The position numbers were made by a program, and so were the translations under genes. Positions 6,063 through 31,984 of a stretch of 40,607 nt of DNA are shown here, piece after piece. The stretch comes from Trypethelium eluteriae. Lineage: Eukaryota. Location: assembly GCA_051942245.1 (NCBI GenBank), contig JAVECL010000018.1:62001-102607 (forward strand). The letters are read 5' to 3'. The notes under the pieces were generated by a model. It saw only the letters and a list, made by a program, of their open reading frames with translations. It was not told where the DNA came from and searched no databases. Position 1 is the first letter of the stretch, and every line of letters begins with the position of its first letter.

Positions 6063-7220
6063 ATAATTCATTCTAGGTCCTCAGTTGACTCGGAACATTG
6101 CTGACGATGTATGTTCTCATGCATAAAGCCAGATTTCTGATGTATCATTTTTGGGGTGTATCTTCGTCGAATGAAATAGCATCGATGCCTTTGCTCCATG
6201 AACGCAGTATAATGCATTTTCTAGTTATTTGCATAAGACTATATACTCCTCTTCATCGACTGTTCGTCAGTGCCCAGATATTGAAGCTACATTGTTTTCC
6301 CACTGGTTCCCCGGCTTAGCGTTGTAGGCTAAACGAACCATATTCGAAACCCTTTTCACTCACCAACGGTTTAGCGAAAACTTAAAATTCCTTCTGTGTG
6401 ATCTATCGTTGACAATCTCACGGCACTCACTATCAACATGTGCAGTAAGTGCATTGTCTCAGACCTCCCGTAGTTCAAGAATTAAGCACAAGCTTCCTCT
6501 CTTTTGTGCTGTTGTTTATCGACTGACGCATTCCATGATAGCAAAACAGGATCCGGCTCCCCAGATGTAGTACCGATTTGTCATAACGGCAATTCATTAC
6601 AGCATACGCTTAATGTTCGTGGAGTTCATGAGTTTGGTTGCCAATAGGGAATCAAGTTTGGGGATTTCCAGTTGATGGCTTGTGTGTAAGATGGGCGTAG
6701 GACTCAACGAGCGAGAGAGCGTTCGATGGTACTTTCATTACCAAAGGCCCGCATTGGCTCCAATAATAGCGCCTGATTTGACATAGCAGCCCCTTATATT
6801 GGATCGTTACACATTAGAATTTGGACTCCCCCTGTAAGGTCGAAGGTTCGGCTGCTTCAAAAATCGTAAGCAATCGCACTCGAGACTAGAAATTCCCGTG
6901 TCTCGTAGGGGAAGGGGCGCAATTCTGTATCCCCTTTTGAGATCAGTCATACGAAAACTACTAGTATTGTGATGCCTAATACTTGGAAAAATCTACTCAG
7001 GACGCACTTCTCGTATCGTGGCCCACCCTGTGAGCCTTCCGCCTAATTAGCTACCAACCTTTCGTTCATTCACCATTGGCCTGGGAAATTTTCAGGAGGT
7101 CTCCAATAGATCCGAGTGCAAGAGCTCGGCTATAGCTTGTGAGATCTTGCATTCCGAGCAGCAAAACCAGCATCTATATACCTGAGCCAAAAGAACTGGT
7201 GGCCGTGCTACCTTTCCAAG

Positions 7221-8201
7221 ATGAGTTCCATCAGCCATGGCCATGTTCGCAACGGAGAAACCCCCAGAAAGAACAAACCTCGAACCGTCCAATTCCGAGA
7301 CGAATCTCTTTCCGGCTCTAACGGCAATGAGGAAGCCTATAGCGGTTTCAGACGTGTACCGGTACTTCGACGTCGTCCAACTCCGCATTCCCGGAAGACA
7401 AGGTCAGCCAACAGGAACGAACACACGCATCCGCGTCCTCCGTTTAGCGTTTACAGTACAGGGAACCCATCCAGGACGAAGAATCCCCTCCAGCCGGTAC
7501 ATCAGATCATGCCGACATCGTTCAATCTACCCAAACCGGCGGTGTCTATCAACGATAGCCTCATTGATGATGAATCCTTTTCATCCTCTGAAGAGGTCTC
7601 CAGTGCTCACAGTGAGGATCTGGTCACACCGCGCGAGCTTTTCCAAATCTCAAGCACTCGACCAAACCTACTGAGTAGACTCGGAAGTCAGAGGCCGCCT
7701 TCACATGGTCCAAAAAGCGCTGGGGAAATCCTCATTCGCCCGCGCGGTCGGCCAAAGGCCGTCGCATTTGCAGATCCCAAAGCTCAGAAAGAGAGCCGGT
7801 ATAGCGCGGATGAAAGTAGCGATTCGTTGAGCGCCGTGCTGGGGAAGCCTCTGATCTTTCCGCCGACTTTCCAAGACTCGGAAGACGAGGAGTCTTTCTC
7901 GAGCGATTCTGATTCTGACTTTGATGGTGAGGCGGAAAGGGTAAGAGAAGGAGTATGTTCCAGATGGAGACCACTCCTTGACGATCTGGCAGATTTATTG
8001 GGAGGTGAGCACATGTATCGCCAAGCACATGAATTGTTGTTGTATATCGTTATAATCCATTGGGGGATGCAAGTATCAGTCGGACTGGGCCTTTTTTACC
8101 TTGTCTCTTTAGTGACGCGGTACTTTGCGGTGCTGGCAGATGCGGCTGTGGGTCTTGAATCAGTGGAATCCATGCCGTGGCATGAACATTGCTTCCATTA
8201 A
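7221..8201 (+). CDS. Hypothetical protein: Ser/Pro/acidic disordered body, RPRGRP (AT-hook-like) motif, hydrophobic C-terminus
   Basis: 326-aa ATG-started ORF with no recognisable family; C-terminal LLLYIVIIHWGMQVSVGLGLFYLVSLV is hydrophobic. Confidence 0.5.
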   Translation: MSSISHGHVRNGETPRKNKPRTVQFRDESLSGSNGNEEAYSGFRRVPVLRRRPTPHSRKTRSANRNEHTHPRPPFSVYSTGNPSRTKNPLQPVHQIMPTSFNLPKPAVSINDSLIDDESFSSSEEVSSAHSEDLVTPRELFQISSTRPNLLSRLGSQRPPSHGPKSAGEILIRPRGRPKAVAFADPKAQKESRYSADESSDSLSAVLGKPLIFPPTFQDSEDEESFSSDSDSDFDGEAERVREGVCSRWRPLLDDLADLLGGEHMYRQAHELLLYIVIIHWGMQVSVGLGLFYLVSLVTRYFAVLADAAVGLESVESMPWHEHCFH

Positions 8202-12730: not shown

Positions 12731-13887
12731 TTAGTAAAACATACCCAGGCCATCATCCTGATACTCGCTGCGCTCACTCTCCGCCTCGTCATATTCATCT
12801 TCCTGCACTCCACTCTCCAGCTTCACCTGACTAGCCGCAGCGACGCCTCCACGACCGCCATCATTCGTCGTCGCGCCCCTCTCCTGACGCTCAACCGACA
12901 GACTACTCGAGGCACCACCCACTCCGCCAACCCCAGCGCCGCTCCCAAATCCGCCGTAGAAGTCGACCTCATAATCTTCCAGCCCACCCATCATTCCCAT
13001 CCCAGATCCATCAAGAGGAATACCTCCAACTTCAGCATCCAACCCATCCACAAAATCCCAGTCTCCGACCGACGGCGCTCTCAGCCCTTCTGCTTTCGCC
13101 GTAGGAGCAGCAGCAGCAGCACTATCACCACGGCGGCGTTTAGAGACCGGCGTCGGAGTCGAGGTGGCCGCCGTCGCCGATGAGGGAGTGCCTGCCATAG
13201 TTTTGGAAACGGGGCGCCGCGGAGGCGTCGAGAAGGGATCGCGATTAGCAGCGGCACCAGAACTAGCGCCCAGTCCACCAGTGTTGTGGAAACCCGGCGA
13301 GGAGAGTCCAAGGGCGCGGGCTTCGGCAGCGGAGACATGCGGAGAGATGAATTCGTCGTCGTCGGAATCGGGGGGTTCTTCTTTCTTAAAGCGCTTGCGC
13401 TTGTTGCCGCTGCTGGGTGTGGTACCGCTGCCACTGGCAGTTTCAGTTTTAATCGGGGTGCCTGCGGTGGAAGCGCTGTTGTTTATGGGTTTCCTGGGTC
13501 GACCTCGAGTTTCGCGCTTGGGACCGTCGGGGCCTGTCTTGGTGACGTTGAAATCTTCGTGGGTGTAGTTGAAAGTACTCCGCAGTTTGACGAGACGTTC
13601 GGACACGGCGCGCCATGTGGGCCTTGGAGAGGAGTCGTCATCGTCAGCTAGTGGGGGTGAGAGAAAGTTAGTAGGAGGGAAGTGAGATAACGCGGTTGGG
13701 AAAATGAAGAGAGCCATACGCCATTGGGCAGCGACTTTGACCGAGTCGATTGCAACTTTGTGCGTCTTCAAGACGGTGAGGAGAAGCTACAGAAATGTAC
13801 ATTAGAGTGATATCAATGTCGTTGAAGTGTCGTATGTTTTTCTGTACTTACACGACGGTCATTCTCGATACTCCATCTGATTGGCAT
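12731..13887 (-). CDS. Fungal Myb/SANT-like small-domain protein with AT-hook and disordered acidic tail, 3 exons
   Basis: Exon 1 (13852-13887) MPIRWSIENDRR, intron 13787-13851 (GTAAGT..CTAAT..TAG), exon 2 LLLTVLKTHKVAIDSVKVAAQW, second intron (GTATGG..CTAAC..TAG), then PRPTWRAVSERLVKLR..TRGRPRK..KRKRFKKEE. Confidence 0.8.
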
Positions 13888-22654: not shown

Positions 22655-23644
22655 ATGGTCAACCTTAGAGATTGGCATGACAGCAAGACTATTCACATCC
22701 TCAAGGATGCTGAAGAGCGCGGCTATGGAATCATCGCGTCCATAGTGTATGTAAACCATAAGACTACTTCTCGCTCTCTCTCGCTGATCTTTGACCTTCT
22801 CAAGATACAATATCGAGCAAATCATTGGAGTCGTGCGGGCTGCGGAGCAAAATCAATCTCCGTTGATCATCCAAGTGTTTCCATGGGCCATAACTTTCTC
22901 CGATGGCCTCATTGTGAGAACAGCAGCAGATGCAGCGTCAAGGGCCTCCGTACCTATAGCTATTCATCTGGACCATTGCCAAGATGAAAAGCTTGTGCGA
23001 TATGCAGCGGATTATCTTCCATTCGACTCGATCATGATCGATATGTCGCACCACGAGAAAGCTGTCAATCTAGCCAAAACGCGAGAGCTTGTCGCCTATT
23101 GCCATGCACGCGGAATCGCTACAGAAGCCGAGCCAGGACGGATAGAGGATGGCGAAGATGGAGTTGCTGATACTATAGATATGCAAGGGATACTAACTAC
23201 CCCTGAAGAGGTCGAAGAGTTTATTGCGACAGGAGTCGACTTTGTCGCTCCAGCTTTCGGGAACGTGCATGGAGAGTATGGGCCAGCAGGTCCGCAATTG
23301 AATTTTGATCGGCGAGTGATGAGTCTCCAAAGTTTCCTTTCCCAAACGCTGACATCGCACAAAGATTCGCGTCGATTAAGAAGCAAGTGAATGGCCGGGT
23401 AAAGCTTGTCGTTCACGGGACCAACGGCTTTCCTCCAGAATTGCTCCAAAGATGCATTCGGGCTGGAGTGAGCAAGATCAACGTGAACAAGCTGGTGCTG
23501 GAAAATTATACACGTCACCTCCAGTCTAAGGCACCATATTTGACCATGACTCGGCTGATGGAGGAAGGTGTAAGTCATGTCATTGGTCAGCAAAAGGAGC
23601 AGATGGACATATGCTGGTCGAGCGGAAAGGCGCGGCCTGCCTAG
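22655..23644 (+). CDS. Class II (metal-dependent) ketose-bisphosphate aldolase, non-glycolytic type, 3 exons
   Basis: YNIEQ..RAAE..SPLIIQ, HLDH, DSIMIDMSH, EAEPGRIE, APAFGNVHGEY, VHGT, KINVN. Introns 22747-22804 and 23312-23364 (GC donor). Confidence 0.92.
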
Positions 23645-26521: not shown

Positions 26522-27266
26522 GTTTTGTGTTGAAAATAGAGATTGTCGGGCATGTCAAGCTGCCTGAGTGACATTGTGGGTCGAAAGAATTGATCAAGTC
26601 TTCTATTGCGCTTTGAAGGAGGTCGAGAACCCAATCTAGCCTGGATAACCTTTACGGGACCGCGTAACGAAGGATGCTCGTGTCGGTTTCATTTAGTGAA
26701 CCTAAAGGATCGTCCCCTAACCGACCTGGTCTTGTCTTCAATTGCCGTAGTAGGTTTCTCATCAAGTTTCAACGTCTAGGCTGATATCTCTAGGCGCGAC
26801 TGGGTTTGGGTTTGAGTTTGGGCTTCGGCTATCGTGTCGATGCATTCGAGCCATTAGTATGAACTTCATCGATCGAACTCCTGAGAAGAGGCCGAGCAGC
26901 CTAAGCAGGGACTGAGCGAACGTTGAGCCGGTGGCTTAGCTTACCACTTTTAGCCTCGTATGAATTCAACCTATCTCAGTCATGATTGTCGTTGTTTTCA
27001 CCTTCGAGAACAGCAATACTAGCTGAACTAGCACGGATCGGTATCAGTTCAGGAAAGAACCGCCCGCTTCCGTTTTTACCAGAGGCAGGTGCTTCCAATT
27101 TTCTTCTGTTTGACGTTGTACTGAATATTTAAGGCAGAAAGAAAGTAATGCCGCACGGTTCCGAAGGATGCAACAGAATTCTTAATGAATCTCAGCTGGG
27201 TTAGCCCTCATGATCACTGCTAATCTTGAATCTTACCAGGCATTTGATGCATGAGAGATCGCAGGT

Positions 27267-28049
27267 ATGGAAGCAATAGGCGCTGCTGCAGGTGCCATAC
27301 AAACTGGTCAACCACTCTTTGCAGCTCACGCTCTCTGCGAGAGAACACACGACACCCCTTCACAGGTGCGGCGACAAGGCACGGAGGTTGTGCATCTTAG
27401 AGCGGCTCTGGAATTAGTCCGGAAATCGCACTTCCACATCTCGGCAATCACCCAGGAACTTGACACCTTCAAGGATTTGATCCTCTCTATCTCATCTGGA
27501 TCGGAGAAAATAAAATCATGGAAAGCCAAATCGAAGGCTGCTCTACCACCGCGTTGGAACTTAAGAAAGAAGACTACTTCAAAGCACTTCAAGAATATCA
27601 AGCGACACTCAGTCTCTCCATTGTTGTTACTACCAGCATCAACAGAAAAATACTGCGGAGCACTCCTCGACCATCGAAGAAGTGACTCAAGACACGCAGT
27701 ATTCCAAGGTCCAAACGCAAGCAATGCAAGAGTCACACCCAGTAGGGCCAGCCCTTAGAGAGCCCGAAGGGATCGAGGAAACCACAAGCTAGAAGCACTC
27801 GTAATTTCCGTTGTGATGTGGAGACCGGGGGAGCATGCAGTGACGACTTCGGAAAAAGCAGTCCCTCTGGGCCTAGAAGCCAACCATAGCGCAGATATGG
27901 TTGTCGGAGACTTTGGAAAACGCGGTAAGGATGCGCCGTCCTCGAGAGAAGTCTGGTACGACATTGAAGCAAATGACCAAAGCAGACTCACGTTTGGGAA
28001 TGTCTTTAATGCCGAGATGCAGAAGTTGTTGCTCAAGAGGGGTTCATAG
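27267..28049 (+). pseudogene. Frameshifted HeLo-like (fungal N-terminal domain) gene with C-terminal HET-s-like amyloid repeats
   Basis: MEAIGAAAGAIQ / LVNHSLQLTLSARE / HDTPSQVRR..LRAALELV.. / KEDYFKALQEYQATLSLSI lie in alternating frames. The terminal frame has GLEANHSADMVVGDF and YDIEANDQSRLTFGNV. Confidence 0.6.
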
Positions 28050-28503: not shown

Positions 28504-30888
28504 TTAATTATGATATTCCTTCGCATCCGAGAATAGTTCCGAAGCCGCGTCTTCGTCGAGCAGTCCACTTTCCACCACCGCCTCCACAAGCTGAGTCGGC
28601 GGTCGCGCGTTGATAACACTCAACAAATCTGCAAAAGCTTGGACAAGCGCCTCTGACACATCTCTTCGATCCCGCAGTCGAGTTTCAAAATCACTAGCCA
28701 CATAGTTCTTATCATAGTTGATCTTGAAATGGTCCACACCTGTCAAGATGGTAATGGTTTCCAGATCGCCATAGAAAGCTGCTAGCTGAAGGAGATTTGG
28801 CCCTTGTAGACGGGGACACGCACTGTATTCCTGCCATCGATCAAGGAGCAGCTGGAGTACGTGGTGGCTATTGTGGATGATCGCAGCAGTAAGAGGGGTC
28901 TGGGCGGTAATGGACTTGGCGTTGATATTGGCCTGATCTTCCAGAAGCAGCGTGGCAACGGCCACATCATCGTTCAATGCTGCATGTAGAAGTGACGTTC
29001 GGCCTTCGGCGCCGCAGGACTCAACATCAGAGTTGAAGTCCAGAAGCGTCTTGATGACGATCGGGTCGGAACCGAGTCGCGTGGCGACGTTCAACGGATT
29101 ACCCCTCTTGAGTCTCTTGTATATGGGAGGATTTGGATCTGCCCCTGCTTCGAGGAGCAAGCGGAGACACACGGGATGATTTTGTGCTGCGGCGTACAAA
29201 AGAGGTCCTGAGAATTGCTGGTCCATATGATTAGGATTGGCTTGATAGCTCAAGAGGATGGCAACCGATCGATCATCCCCGCGCGCTGAAGCCCACTGGA
29301 GGGCGGTTCTTCCTTTAGCATCAGTCGCATCAACTTCGTCTGGATGTGCCTGCGCTTCCTGCTCCAAGCTAGCTGCTGATAACCCAAGAACAATCTTGTG
29401 CAATGTTGTGAAGTTCTGCTCTTCCGTAAAGTCATCCATCCTGGTTAGACAGCTCAAGAAATCTTTCGCTTCTTTGGAAAGAGCGCCTTGAAGTAAAAAG
29501 TCACAAGCTTTGTTCTTTGGATTGTCATCATGAGCTGCAATAGGCTTGTATTCGACGTCTGCACCCGCATACACTAAAAATTGGCATGTTTCGTATTGCT
29601 TTCCGTAAAGAGCCCAGCGAAGAAGCGAGTAGCCACGAGTACTGCTTACGTCCTGCGGAGATGCCAGCCCACGGACAAAGAGATCCTTTAGTGCTATTAT
29701 GTTCCCTTCTAGCGCAAAATTGACGCAAGGCGCAGAGTCGGGAACTCTTCGCAAGGTCTTCAATTGGAATTGCGGGCCGAAGCTCTGGGAGACACCCATT
29801 TGAACGCGAACAATTTGGGACCAGAAAAACCCGAGCGGAAACCAATATTCAAAATTCATCTGGGGCGTTTGAGCTTTTTGGCATGCTTCCAGGTTGCATT
29901 TTCGGCTTACGACCGGTAGGCCGGCATAACCAACAAACAACTGTCCAAGCAAACGATCCGCAATAGTTGGCGTAGAAGACTTTTTATACGTATGGCATAG
30001 GCATGGGCATCCAGGTCGACATACAGAGGAGTATTGTGAGGCTCTGATGCTAACGCCCTCGGGGCTCGGCATGTGCTGCGTCCCTTCTTTCGTACTGTGT
30101 TTAGCAATTTTCCGTCGCCGATACGCAGGCGACCCATAGTGGGGACCAAGTTGTGTAGTATAACCTTCTTGTAATCTGCCTGACTGGCTCTGTAGTAGTG
30201 CCATTATCTCATCGATCCTTGAGTCCATCTGTTGTGCGAGCGCATTGCTTTGCAGAATTCCCGAGTTCATCTGTTGTGTGAGCGCATTGGTTTGAACAAC
30301 CTCTTGTCGCAGGTCATTCAGGTCTTCCAAGGACAGTGAGTCCACCGCTGAGAGGTTCTCAAGGTCTAGCCGTACGCGAGCCATATCCCGTCTGCCACAT
30401 TTCCCTCTGTCAGTACCGACCCTAATCATTTAAGTCTGTACTGGACGAAGGCGTGCTTACGAGTTCGATGCACCCAGGATGACATTGAGACTAGACTTCA
30501 CCGACTTGATTTCGTCTTGCAGCGTTTGGATTTTCGCTTGTTCCTTTTGCCACCGAGGACCTCGAAAGATCGGGATTTTTGTCTCAATGCAAGCCTTGAC
30601 AAGCCGTGAGTTGACAGCGTCGAGTTCTGTTAACTTCGACTCCGCTCGTTTCAAAAGGTGTTCGATATCGGCCCGTTCCGGTGTCGACGATAGCAAAACT
30701 TCGCGGTCTCGAGTGACATCCGCAAGTTGGTGGAGGACGACTTTCAGGTCAACGACCTCGTTGTGTAATGCGTGCACTCTCCCGGGAACAGATTTGTGAA
30801 GTCCGCGAAGTTTTATGAATCCCTGGCACGTCTGACCAGCAAGAGTGGCAACGGCAATAATAGAAGCAGTCAGCGATAGCGGGTCCAT
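28504..30888 (-). CDS. HeLo-like N-terminal domain + Cys-rich linker + ankyrin-repeat protein (no NACHT/NB-ARC visible), 2 exons
   Basis: MDPLSLTASIIAVATLAGQ..LHNEVVDL..LNVILGASNS | intron 30392-30460 | RDMARVRLDLE..CRPGCPCLCH..CNLEAC..; ankyrin motifs GRTALQWA, GPLLYAA..LLLEAGADPN, GRTSLLHAA, TPLTAAI. Confidence 0.88.
30221..30294. repeat. 42-bp-period tandem duplication within the ankyrin gene
   Basis: gagtccatctgttgtgcgagcgcattgctttg / gagttcatctgttgtgtgagcgcattggtttg; encodes QTNALTQQMNS and QSNALAQQMDS. Confidence 0.85.
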
Positions 30889-31210
30889 TGTCCCCCGGAG
30901 AGAACAGTAGGTAACCCGATGAAAACCGGACAGCTACTCCGTACATCTCTGCGGCGTTCGTGCACTACGTATATATAGACGAAATCCCGATCAGAAAGCG
31001 GGGCGTAGAGATACGAAAAGGACCAATGAAGCTGTGAAGCGCCCAGCCTTGCGACTCCTGTCTGATCCCCAAACGCCCACTACGTCGCGTACTCGGGCGG
31101 CACAGATTGGTTGCGAAGGCTTGGCATTGATCCCATACCTCCTCGCTACATAACAACGTGCGAGCCCGTCCCTTGTGAAAATAGGCCGATCTGAATACAG
31201 CTTGTCACGC

Positions 31211-31984
31211 ATGGAGCCCGCACCTCTTGTCGTTCTCAACGGCTACCCCGGTGTGGGCAAAGCTGCCGTTGCGTCTGCGCTACAGTAAGGCAAAACAACG
31301 AACCAAAACGTCATATTACACATTTTCTCATAGAATACCATTTACAGGAAGCTTATTCCCAATTCGAAATGTTTAGACAATCATCTACTTATTGACCCAG
31401 TAGCCGCCCTGCTGGAGCGTGAGGATGCAGGATATCGTGACTTACGCAAAGCACTCGTGTGTATCAGTTTCTATTACGATCTCGAATCTAAAGACAGCCT
31501 CATGCTGAAACATTTCCTTTTTCAGCGAGATCCAATTTTCGACTGCATTGCTACCAACCCATCTCTTCGACCAAGAACAGTGATCACGACGTATTACCAA
31601 GAAACCTTCGCCGACCGCGCCATCGATCTGGAAGAGTGCCTCCATAGCGCCAGGCGAGGCGGACGGCTTTTGATCGTGTTCATTCTCACCTGCAGCAAGG
31701 AAGAGAACATGCGCAGACTACTCGATAAGTCTCGCGAATCGAAATCGAAGCTACGAGATATCAAAATCTTGGAAGACATCCTAGAAAATCATTTTGTCTA
31801 CTCGTTTGATAAGGCTGGGTTTAAGCCGCCAACTGTTTGGGAGTACAGCTTAGATATCACGAGTTTGGACCCTCAAGGGGCTGCCTTGGTGATCTTGGAT
31901 ATCGTCAAAGAACACGAAAAAGCATTCAACACAAGAGCAGATGTTATCAGGAAAGGCCGAAATGCATCGAGATTATCCTCGTAA
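31211..31984 (+). CDS. Small P-loop nucleotide/antibiotic kinase-like protein (AAA_33/chloramphenicol phosphotransferase-like), 3 exons
   Basis: MEPAPLVVLNGYPGVGKAAVASALQ|KLIPNSKCLDNHLLIDPVAALLER..YRDLRKAL|RD..LTCSKEENMRRL..R..SKSKL..LDITSLDP. Confidence 0.82.

Follow-up and report, generated by a model that had tools for sequence, protein, structure and literature searches.

On the forward strand of Trypethelium eluteriae contig JAVECL010000018.1, within the 40,607-nucleotide stretch analysed here (the window, whose numbering is used throughout), the locus at 27267-28049 begins with the remnant of a gene for a rare, predicted helical domain and ends in two pseudo-repeats that fit the HRAM pattern. 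We give about an even chance to the reading that it is a pseudogenised effector of the HeLo-like class with a divergent HRAM. Rather than a new system, the locus most likely represents a degenerated version of a familiar type of cell-death switch. Amyloid signalling from an NLR to a HeLo-type executioner is a well-described fungal cell-death pathway.

The ancestral effector would have begun with a helical domain of ~125 residues, followed by ~50 residues of polar linker, and its prion-forming C-terminal part would have consisted of two HRAM pseudo-repeats. In an intact copy, an NLR receptor with one matching N-terminal motif would oligomerise, and its motif would serve as the template on which both repeats fold as a two-rung beta-solenoid; this refolding would free the N-terminal helical domain for membrane attack and cell death. 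The present assembly would depart from that state by -1 shifts near 27557-27566 and 27637-27650 and a further change near 27742-27792, and with the frame broken the repeats would no longer be translated behind the domain. The gene as assembled is therefore not a working effector.

Two pseudo-repeats in the last reading frame

The last reading frame (frame D, frame 0, 27759-28049) is open for 96 codons followed by TAG, and the two HET-s-like pseudo-repeats that the initial annotation had proposed are both present in its last 66 codons. The end of the frame reads ...EKAVPLGLEANHSADMVVGDF / GKRGKDAPS / SREVWYDIEANDQSRLTFGNV / FNAEMQKLLLKRGS, corresponding to repeat R1 (27852-27914, positions 1-21), a 9-aa loop (27915-27941), repeat R2 (27942-28004, positions 1-21) and a tail that closes with the TAG at 28047-28049 (28005-28049 including the stop). 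In the published description used here, HRAM numbering assigns 21 residues to each repeat, with an invariant Gly at position 19 (the beta-arch), hydrophobic residues at 5, 8, 16 and 18, a hydrophobic residue or Thr at 10, Arg or Lys preferred at 15, Asn, Gln or His at 3, and a Gly-rich loop of 6-18 residues (Daskalov, Dyrka and Saupe 2015, PMC4518210). The same source describes two motif copies in the last 80 residues, a tail that often carries an aromatic residue and a diglycine, and charge complementarity between repeats at positions 4, 6, 7, 11, 12 and 13 (PMC4518210).

R1 carries five of the eight published residue features (L8, A10, M16, V18 and G19) and departs from the pattern at A3, P5 and D15, whereas R2 carries seven (W5, I8, A10, R15, L16, F18 and G19) and departs only at E3. 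The hydrophobic core at 5, 8, 10, 16 and 18 is thus complete in R2 (W, I, A, L, F) and filled at four of five positions in R1 (P, L, A, M, V), the Pro at core position 5 of R1 being unfavourable in a strand. Gly19 is followed by D in R1, the GD ending initially described for the first repeat, and by N in R2; this G[DN] bigram is characteristic of HRAM. The loop is Gly-rich (two Gly) and of a length inside the published range, and the tail has one aromatic residue (Phe) and lacks a diglycine.

Position 15 is Arg in R2 and Asp in R1, opposite charges that could pair between rungs, and one published r2, TINEIVDLEARGSSDVHVGNT, likewise has Asp15 (PMC4518210 supplement). At position 3, where Asn marks HRAM1, Gln HRAM2 and His HRAM3 (PMC4518210), R1 has Ala and R2 Glu, so the pair fits none of these subfamilies. 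The R1/R2 pairs at 4, 6, 7, 11, 12 and 13 are V/V, L/Y, G/D, N/N, H/D and S/Q, with no clash and at most one pairing (His12/Asp12), while Glu at position 9 in both repeats would stack like charges.

R2 aligned without gaps to HET-s repeat 1, as had been noted at the outset, with D7, I8, R15, G19, N20 and V21 identical (6/21; HET-s sequence from the PMC4518210 supplement). Compared by eye, published repeats such as KSHSYDGNEANNKARAVYGNI have E9-A10-N11, R15 and G19-N20 in the same register; others end in QSRLQVGNV, and some published repeats have QSRLxxGNV in this register (PMC4518210 supplement). Judged by its sequence, the C-terminal frame fits within the range of the published HRAM pattern.

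The published features alone are not rare: in shuffled six-frame translations of the window, 0.44-0.56 pairs per window passed them, with at least one such pair in 68 of 200 shuffles. The likeness between the two repeats is a different matter. Scored in register with BLOSUM62 they reach 21, and 15 when the eight defining positions are left out; among 400 chance pairs taken through the same feature filter none reached 21 and one reached 15. From these counts we estimate that a pair like R1/R2 arises by chance roughly 1e-3 times per window. It is the only such pair in the six-frame translation of the window (1 in 81,210 residues), where R2 is one of five 21-residue segments with seven features. 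At the nucleotide level the repeats are identical at 24 of 63 positions, distributed 8/11/5 over the three codon positions and thus mostly at positions 1 and 2, which indicates likeness at the protein level and no recent DNA duplication.

Codon usage was scored as a log-likelihood ratio per codon and compared with 127 segments of real genes and 113 open wrong-frame segments. The repeat frame (27843-28046) scored 0.151 against a real-gene mean of 0.081, a value reached by 13% of the real-gene segments and 4.4% of the open wrong-frame segments; upstream segments A and C scored 0.053 and 0.122. A third, degenerate copy of the repeat, suggested near 27790 on the strength of the CTAGAAGC duplicated at 27789 and 27873, did not survive scoring: in register it gave -16 against R1 and -12 against R2, in the range of the background (mean -20, sd 8), and it is without Gly19. 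The locus contains 2 duplicated 8-mers, where 6.0 would be expected.

Searches with the repeat frame returned no relative. No frame piece matched any Pfam family at E<=10, the HET-s profile PF11558 (HET-s_218-289) included, so that the anticipated HRAM profile match did not materialise; since PF11558 matches only 38 of the 155 accepted double-repeat HRAM proteins (PMC4518210), this is weak counter-evidence. Phmmer gave no match in the PDB, in which HET-s structures are present, and the Atlas gave no usable match to the repeat frame (recognition 1292, below the 2300 mark). A word-index search, covering longer proteins only, produced 132 candidates with none at E<=10, and a metagenome scan with the 68-aa repeat piece yielded 315 pattern matches and no confirmed relative. 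The beta-solenoid expected from structure prediction did not appear either: AlphaFold2 run on the 68-aa piece as a single sequence gave no beta structure (pLDDT 57.6) and, at low confidence, a helix at residues 41-65.

Most HRAM proteins, though not all, have an adjacent NLR with a single r0 motif (PMC4518210). No NACHT or NB-ARC domain was found in the 75 ORFs of at least 110 aa in the window, which leaves the predicted NLR with one N-terminal copy without a candidate in these 40.6 kb. A search of the six frames of the window for a single r0 copy was likewise negative, the best other 21-mer scoring 13 versus 64-66 for the repeats themselves.

The upstream domain and the frame breaks

Segment A (27267-27563, frame 0) starts with an ATG, spans 99 codons and corresponds to a predicted helical N-terminal domain. 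A search of 1.84 billion proteins found a single real homologue, P0001 (188 aa), whose sequence is a gene prediction on a 4988-base metagenome contig. Residues 1-98 of P0001 are identical to segment A at 35 of 98 positions (E 3.4e-8 for 1.84e9 proteins), and tblastn inside the window gave E 5e-15. A second match, P0002 (E 1e-7), has 22 VWA repeats in its 4429 aa and was taken as spurious. P0001 aligned to 27267-27687 only when two -1 shifts were allowed, in which case the alignment extended to residue 141 with 48 of 141 residues identical (about 34-36% identity over its course).

The first break, one base short, lies at 27557-27566, where nine aligned residues (W..F) are covered by 26 nt and the P0001 alignment passes ungapped from frame 0 to frame 2. 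This ungapped passage rules out an intron, and no GT..AG pair able to make one is present at 27557-27566. Segment B (27563-27637, frame 2, KKEDYFKALQEYQATLSLSIVVTTS), probably the last helix of the domain, aligned with P0001 100-124 at a local score of 41, which 2 of 2000 shuffles attained; kept in frame 0, this DNA scored 23, attained by 743 of 2000. The link emerged only by Smith-Waterman alignment with shuffles, BLASTP at default settings giving no local alignment between P0001 and frame B.

Frame 2 closes at the TGA at 27683-27685. The frameshift-aware alignment to P0001 weakly suggests a second -1 break before this point, at an uncertain site within 27637-27650 (~27638 in the alignment), with a small net gain over the shift penalty of -12. 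Segment C (27637-27792, frame 1) would then encode a polar linker rich in Q, E, T and S, ending at the TAG at 27790-27792. P0001 126-141 aligned weakly to its start, and the remainder of the segment had no significant similarity to P0001 (60 of 2000 shuffles). Neither did P0001 resemble the repeat frame (873 of 2000 shuffles, and no local alignment in default BLASTP); its own frame is unbroken and holds no HRAM-like pair.

Segments A, B and C and frame D are each free of internal stops in their own frames, and a frame-0 reading from the ATG at 27267 meets one stop, the TAG at 27756-27758, before it reaches the last. Reaching the repeat frame from segment C needs either a third frame change or a weak candidate intron, and the transfer from frame 1 to frame 0 would fall within 27742-27792: as a third -1 break at 27759-27792, or as a 47-nt GT..AG interval (27742-27788) that would link ..QESHP to LEALVISV.. 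in frame. Its donor is GTAGGG and its acceptor AAG, and the CTRAC branch motif present in three real introns of the window is missing from it. Rescue of the whole frame by a single intron was rejected. GT..AG intervals 38-300 nt long number 624 in the locus, and in 66 single-intron models the frame stays open; the donor consensus is GTRNGT, and no donor fits it among the 60 of 66 models listed. Programmed frameshifting was likewise set aside, two or three successive -1 events without a slippery heptamer not being credible.

The initial annotation had placed the repeats at the end of a HeLo-like gene. This placement stands only if two or three frame changes from the ATG at 27267 are allowed; on the assembled DNA, the domain upstream and the repeats are not connected. 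The assignment to an HRAM-type effector is borne out in part, by a C-terminal frame that fits the pattern and a rare helical domain upstream, while the broken frame and the residues at position 3 depart from it.

A HeLo-like or SesA domain is expected to be a helical bundle whose N-terminal helix consists of small residues. AlphaFold2 predicted helices in P0001 at 2-24, 32-53, 59-89 and 95-131 with low confidence (mean pLDDT 55), and Foldseek matched this model to generic four-helix bundles only, with 0 matches at E<=0.001. The nearest Atlas clusters to P0001, found by language-model features only, are ascomycete proteins labelled 'fungal N-terminal domain', including ones bearing PigL_N, SesA or Ses_B (scores 0.91-0.94, recognition 2814). 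The best Pfam row for P0001 was Rx_N (E 0.003, 18 bits, below the 27.7 cut-off), with PigL_N and SesA unlisted, and the frame pieces of the window had no match to HeLo, PigL_N (PF17111) or SesA (PF17107) at E<=10. No relatives of P0001 were found among 539 candidates of 103-329 aa. For segment A, a word-index search covering longer proteins only gave 2317 candidates with none at E<=1, and a metagenome scan with its alignment gave 323 pattern matches and no confirmed relative. A neighbouring gene in the window carries a PigL_N domain; hhalign found no link between that domain and the one described here (probability 0.4%). From the homology to P0001, the upstream part is the remnant of a real gene with a rare, predicted helical N-terminal domain, and the Atlas neighbourhood suggests that this domain is HeLo-like.

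Alternative readings of the locus

The main rival holds that the ancestral gene ended at 27790-27792, that 27793-28049 is 3' flank, and that its resemblance to HRAM is coincidental. We regard this as unlikely. Segments A, B and C together amount to ~175 codons, near the 188 aa of P0001, which itself has nothing resembling the repeat frame; the TAG at 27790-27792 may therefore have been the end of the ancestral gene. The absence of a profile, structure or database match for the repeat frame, the ease with which the bare features arise by chance (0.44-0.56 pairs per window), the off-pattern P5 and D15 of R1 and the Glu9 of both repeats point the same way; very many windows were scanned, and an event of 1e-3 turns up somewhere. 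Against coincidence, the in-register similarity of R1 and R2 exceeds that of all 400 chance pairs, and the pair follows immediately, on the same strand, upon a gene of a class that typically bears such motifs, the chance of a random pair falling in any given 100-residue stretch being ~1e-3. The codon usage of the frame is gene-like, and identical bases in the two repeats fall mainly on codon positions 1 and 2. The ending of P0001 is also a doubtful yardstick: its contig measures 4988 bases, and its predicted C-terminus may be read-through into an intron.

It is quite improbable, in our estimate, that the locus encodes an intact effector of ~260 aa with domain and HRAM pair, its breaks being local assembly errors and the change from frame 1 to frame 0 perhaps a short intron. 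All three changes would be -1 and sum to zero, which is why frames A and D coincide; the first break lies in an A-rich stretch and the second perhaps in a run of five A, the four segments are each free of internal stops, and the 47-nt GT..AG interval would connect frame 1 to frame 0. However, two or three errors would be needed in 783 bases, and the candidate intron has no CTRAC branch motif. Ten neighbouring ORFs, covering 14,448 bases with 638 homopolymer runs of at least 3 and 29 of at least 5, are all uninterrupted, and a general assembly fault is therefore an unlikely source of the breaks.

It is very doubtful that the organism makes such an intact ~260-aa protein as the founder of an undescribed effector family, in which a short four-helix killing domain and a divergent HRAM would be under the control of an NLR whose gene lies elsewhere in the genome. 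If true, the family, for which Pfam has no model, would count two members in 1.84 billion representative proteins, and its HRAM would lack the Asn/Gln/His ladder at position 3 and carry a Glu-Ala-Asn triad in both rungs.

We consider it highly improbable that the repeat frame, having lost the killing domain, is now translated as a stand-alone amyloid peptide from the in-frame ATG at 27816-27818, which precedes R1 and opens 77 codons: the gene-like codon usage of the frame would agree with this, and the non-toxic het-s allele is comparable in spirit to a prion-forming piece without its effector, but a new transcription or translation start within a decayed gene would be required, promoter, transcript and homologue support is lacking, and no search returned a match.

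Significance and comparison with known systems

The pseudogenised HeLo-like-class effector remains our preferred reading. As one further HRAM instance, probably dead, it adds little alone to the 155 double-repeat HRAM proteins, with 310 repeats, catalogued in 2015 (PMC4518210). Its N-terminal domain is of some value as a member of a very rare family without a Pfam model; effector catalogues built from known domains of the HeLo, HeLo-like or SesA types would therefore miss it. Freshly broken and with its segments still open, the copy would also be a small example of birth-and-death turnover, as is expected for immune-like genes of this type.

With HET-S/HET-s of Podospora anserina and HRAM1-5 as described in the source consulted (PMC4518210), the locus shares two 21-residue pseudo-repeats, here within the last 66 residues, the Gly19 followed by D or N, the hydrophobic core, the Arg15 of R2, a Gly-rich loop, here of 9 aa, and an aromatic residue in the short tail. 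It differs in having Ala and Glu at position 3, Pro5 and Asp15 in R1, no diglycine in the tail, no PF11558 match, a broken frame and no neighbouring NLR in the window. In the HRAM proteins of this source a HeLo, HeLo-like or SesA domain precedes the motif in the same polypeptide, whereas here it would take two or three frame changes to join them, and the upstream domain of ~125 aa matches no HeLo, PigL_N or SesA model.

Proteins with HeLo-like (PF17111, now PigL_N) or SesA (PF17107) domains carry C-terminal amyloid motifs such as HRAM, sigma/Ses_B, PP and PUASM (Wojciechowski et al. 2022, PMC9815663). The domain described here shows no HMM-level membership in these families and is shorter than the 209-position PigL_N model. 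The likeness lies in the overall design, that of a small protein in which a polar linker connects a helical N-terminal domain to a short motif at the C-terminus, and in an N-terminal start of the form M-E-A-x-G-x-A-A.

The gene for a predicted helical domain and its broken frame

Frame 0 opens at an ATG at 27267 and meets a TAG at 27756–27758. When its first 102 codons were used as the query of a full HMMER search against 1.84 billion representative proteins, two matches came back, P0001 and P0002. The latter, a protein with 22 VWA repeats, was rejected as spurious. P0001, a 188-aa protein from a single metagenome contig, is a genuine match (E=3.4e-8, 35% identity over residues 1–99); none of 539 candidates of 103–329 aa proved to be its relative. 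The P0001 tail (residues 142–188) carries no recognised amyloid motif. The ATG lies within GTATGG (27265–27270), immediately 3' of CAG, and just upstream are a branch-like GCTAAT and an acceptor CCAG at 27239, which suggests a possible 5'-UTR intron ahead of it.

No HMM assigns the domain to a family: Pfam returned nothing for its pieces in the window, and the best Pfam row for P0001, Rx_N, was sub-threshold (E=0.003, 18 bits against a 27.7-bit cut-off, residues 18–96). Rx_N is the coiled-coil domain of plant NLRs, whose fold class is likewise a four-helix cell-death domain. With hhalign, no link emerged between the domain in the window and PigL_N of the adjoining gene. AlphaFold2 predicted four long helices and a fifth for P0001 (mean pLDDT 55), Foldseek with this model retrieved only generic four-helix bundles (no match at E≤0.001), and structure prediction tells nothing about P0001 beyond a predicted fold class. 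In Atlas language-model features, P0001 lies nearest to clusters of ascomycete proteins termed 'fungal N-terminal domain', several of which include members with PigL_N, SesA or Ses_B, a placement (scores 0.91–0.94, 169–178 of 256 features in common, recognition 2814) that is a lead and not a membership test. The PigL_N/SesA-type class is described as a carrier of C-terminal amyloid signalling motifs (PMC4518210).

Past W97 the P0001 alignment runs on gapless in frame 2 (KKEDYFKALQEYQATLSLSIVVTTS versus KIQDRFRILQGFLQSLTLAINVMNS; score 41, equalled in 2 of 2,000 shuffles), and the frame of the window gene is therefore broken. The same DNA continued in frame 0 has no similarity to P0001 (743 of 2,000 shuffles). 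Frameshift-aware alignment placed P0001 residues 1–141 over 27267–27687 (48 of 141 identical) with −1 shifts at ∼27558 and ∼27638; the second, whose gain is barely above the shift penalty, is weak. Codon usage traces the same path, with log-likelihood ratios per codon of 0.053 (27267–27563, frame 0), 0.102 (27563–27637, frame 2) and 0.122 (27637–27792, frame 1), against −0.005 for frame 0 continued through 27564–27755. Frame 1 stops at a TAG at 27790–27792. From it the repeat frame could be reached by a third −1 change (27759–27792) or a 47-nt GT..AG interval (27742–27788), which would connect ..QESHP to LEALVISV.. in frame. As this interval lacks the CTRAC branch motif present in three real window introns, the link to the repeat frame is one that we infer. 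The initial annotation had placed the repeats at the end of a HeLo-like gene: a gene with a predicted helical domain does lie upstream on the same strand, but as assembled the repeats are out of frame with its domain.

The repeat frame

The open stretch in frame 0 runs from 27759 to a TAG at 28047–28049. Numbered by the 21-residue scheme of Daskalov et al. 2015 (PMC4518210), it contains, all on the + strand, the candidate HET-s-related amyloid motif (HRAM) repeats R1 (27852–27914, EKAVPLGLEANHSADMVVGDF) and R2 (27942–28004, SREVWYDIEANDQSRLTFGNV), the intervening loop (27915–27941, GKRGKDAPS) and a tail (28005–28046, FNAEMQKLLLKRGS). The peptides and coordinates first annotated agree with the window translation, and R2 indeed aligns without gaps to HET-s r1 as printed in the supplement of that paper (PMC4518210), with D7, I8, R15, G19, N20 and V21 identical. 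A third degenerate copy, proposed at the duplicated CTAGAAGC, is background (scores −16 and −12, without Gly19); the locus has 2 duplicated 8-mers against 6.0 expected. In frame 0, KLEALVISVVMW (27789–27830) precedes R1 and by eye resembles LLEANQVSCGVVFSQ and RRLEALG, found before motif 1 of several proteins in the published set (PMC4518210). Within the loop lies a donor-like GTAAGG of good quality (27925–27930), with several AG sites 45–98 nt downstream; were it used, R2 would be intronic.

Eight features drawn from PMC4518210 were scored (G19; hydrophobic 5, 8, 10, 16 and 18; R/K 15; N/Q/H 3), of which R2 has seven and R1 five. With a 6–18-residue loop required, R1–R2 was the sole qualifying pair in the six-frame translation (81,210 residues). 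Shuffled translations gave 0.44 qualifying pairs per window (68 of 200 shuffles held one or more), so the bare pattern is without significance. The repeats are also alike in register, sharing V4, E9, A10, N11 and G19, with a BLOSUM62 score of 21, or 15 after dropping the eight defining positions. Filter-passing chance pairs averaged −8.8 (sd 9.7), reaching at least 21 in 0 of 400 and at least 15 in 1 of 400. All counted together, the pair is about a 1e-3 event per window. At the nucleotide level 24 of 63 positions are identical, and their split by codon position (8/11/5) points to constraint on the protein and not to recent DNA duplication. Codon usage of the repeat frame is gene-like (0.151 per codon): of 127 segments from real genes 13% score as high or higher, as do 4.4% of 113 open segments in a wrong frame.

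Genomic setting and competing readings

The window DNA is fungal, of ascomycete type. Its long ORFs encode a Zn2Cys6 transcription factor, short-chain dehydrogenases, an MFS sugar transporter, a class-II aldolase, CorA, a cyclophilin and a PigL_N-plus-ankyrin protein; those at 7143–8201 (+), 12731–13786 (−) and 31334–31984 (+), of 352, 351 and 216 codons, match no Pfam family at E≤0.001. The class-II fructose-bisphosphate aldolase gene (22788–23641, +) occupies two frames (profile 20–191 and 190–277), explained by a short intron (GTGATG...GCTGAC...AAAG) that served as reference for genuine intron signals in this genome. The PigL_N gene (28504–30933, −; PigL_N E=5e-8) is convergent with the locus, 455 bp past the stop at 28049, which means that the locus adjoins a further gene encoding a HeLo-like-class domain. 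This neighbour has a short intron (GTAAGC...CTGACAG), then a 641-codon exon with ankyrin repeats, and neither NACHT nor NB-ARC. A Pfam scan found no NACHT or NB-ARC among all 75 window ORFs of at least 110 aa, and the anticipated NLR partner with a single N-terminal motif (r0) was absent, as was any r0 copy, from the 27 kb upstream and 12.5 kb downstream.

We read the locus as a decayed HeLo-like-class effector with a divergent HRAM pair, a view we believe about as readily as we doubt it. In its favour are the in-register likeness of R1 and R2, their agreement with the published pattern and with single repeats in print, the gene-like codon usage of the repeat frame, and the location of that frame on the same strand as a gene of the right class and immediately downstream of it. 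Weighing against it are the want of support from profiles or databases, the fact that the one homologue is repeat-free and near the first three segments in length, the unproven join, the departures of R1 and the missing partner. A chance frame in the 3' flank is an unlikely but real alternative. That the gene is intact and its breaks are local assembly errors is improbable: ten neighbouring ORFs (14,448 bases, with 638 homopolymer runs of at least 3 and 29 of at least 5) are unbroken, so 2–3 indel errors in 783 bases would not be typical of this assembly. We give very little credence to a stand-alone peptide translated from an ATG at 27816; some other explanation takes the remainder.

Relation to known HET-s-type systems

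If the decayed effector was once intact, then by analogy with the known HET-s-type system, from which this mechanism is wholly taken, an activated NLR with one matching N-terminal motif would oligomerise and template R1 and R2 into a two-rung beta-solenoid, and refolding would release the N-terminal helix of the helical domain for membrane insertion. The DNA as assembled cannot support this, since it does not keep the repeats in frame with the domain. The locus is probably one more member, now dead, of a well-catalogued kind, of modest interest for a rare N-terminal domain without a Pfam model and an odd position 3 in the repeats.

The proposed profile check gave no match: Pfam, PF11558 included, found nothing in the repeat frame at E≤10. 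This negative is weak evidence, since PF11558 recognises just 38 of 155 accepted HRAM proteins (Daskalov et al. 2015, PMC4518210). A PDB sequence search, a word-index protein search, Atlas and a metagenome scan likewise returned nothing for it. According to the abstract of Daskalov et al. 2015 (PMC4518210), most but not all HRAM genes adjoin their NLR gene, and non-adjacent effector/NLR pairs are also discussed in the literature.

The repeats depart from the HRAM pattern in Pro5 and Asp15 of R1, in Glu9 of both rungs, in a tail without diglycine, and at position 3, where R1 has Ala and R2 has Glu but the HRAM subfamilies have N, Q or H. Compared by eye with hand-picked rows of the published supplement (PMC4518210), as illustration and not as a test of fit, KSHSYDGNEANNKARAVYGNI has E9, A10, N11, R15, G19 and N20 in the same register as here, TKNSMRTVSATNQSRLQVGNV has A10, Q13, S14, R15, L16, G19, N20 and V21, and TINEIVDLEARGSSDVHVGNT agrees with R1 at L8, E9, A10, S13, D15, V18 and G19.
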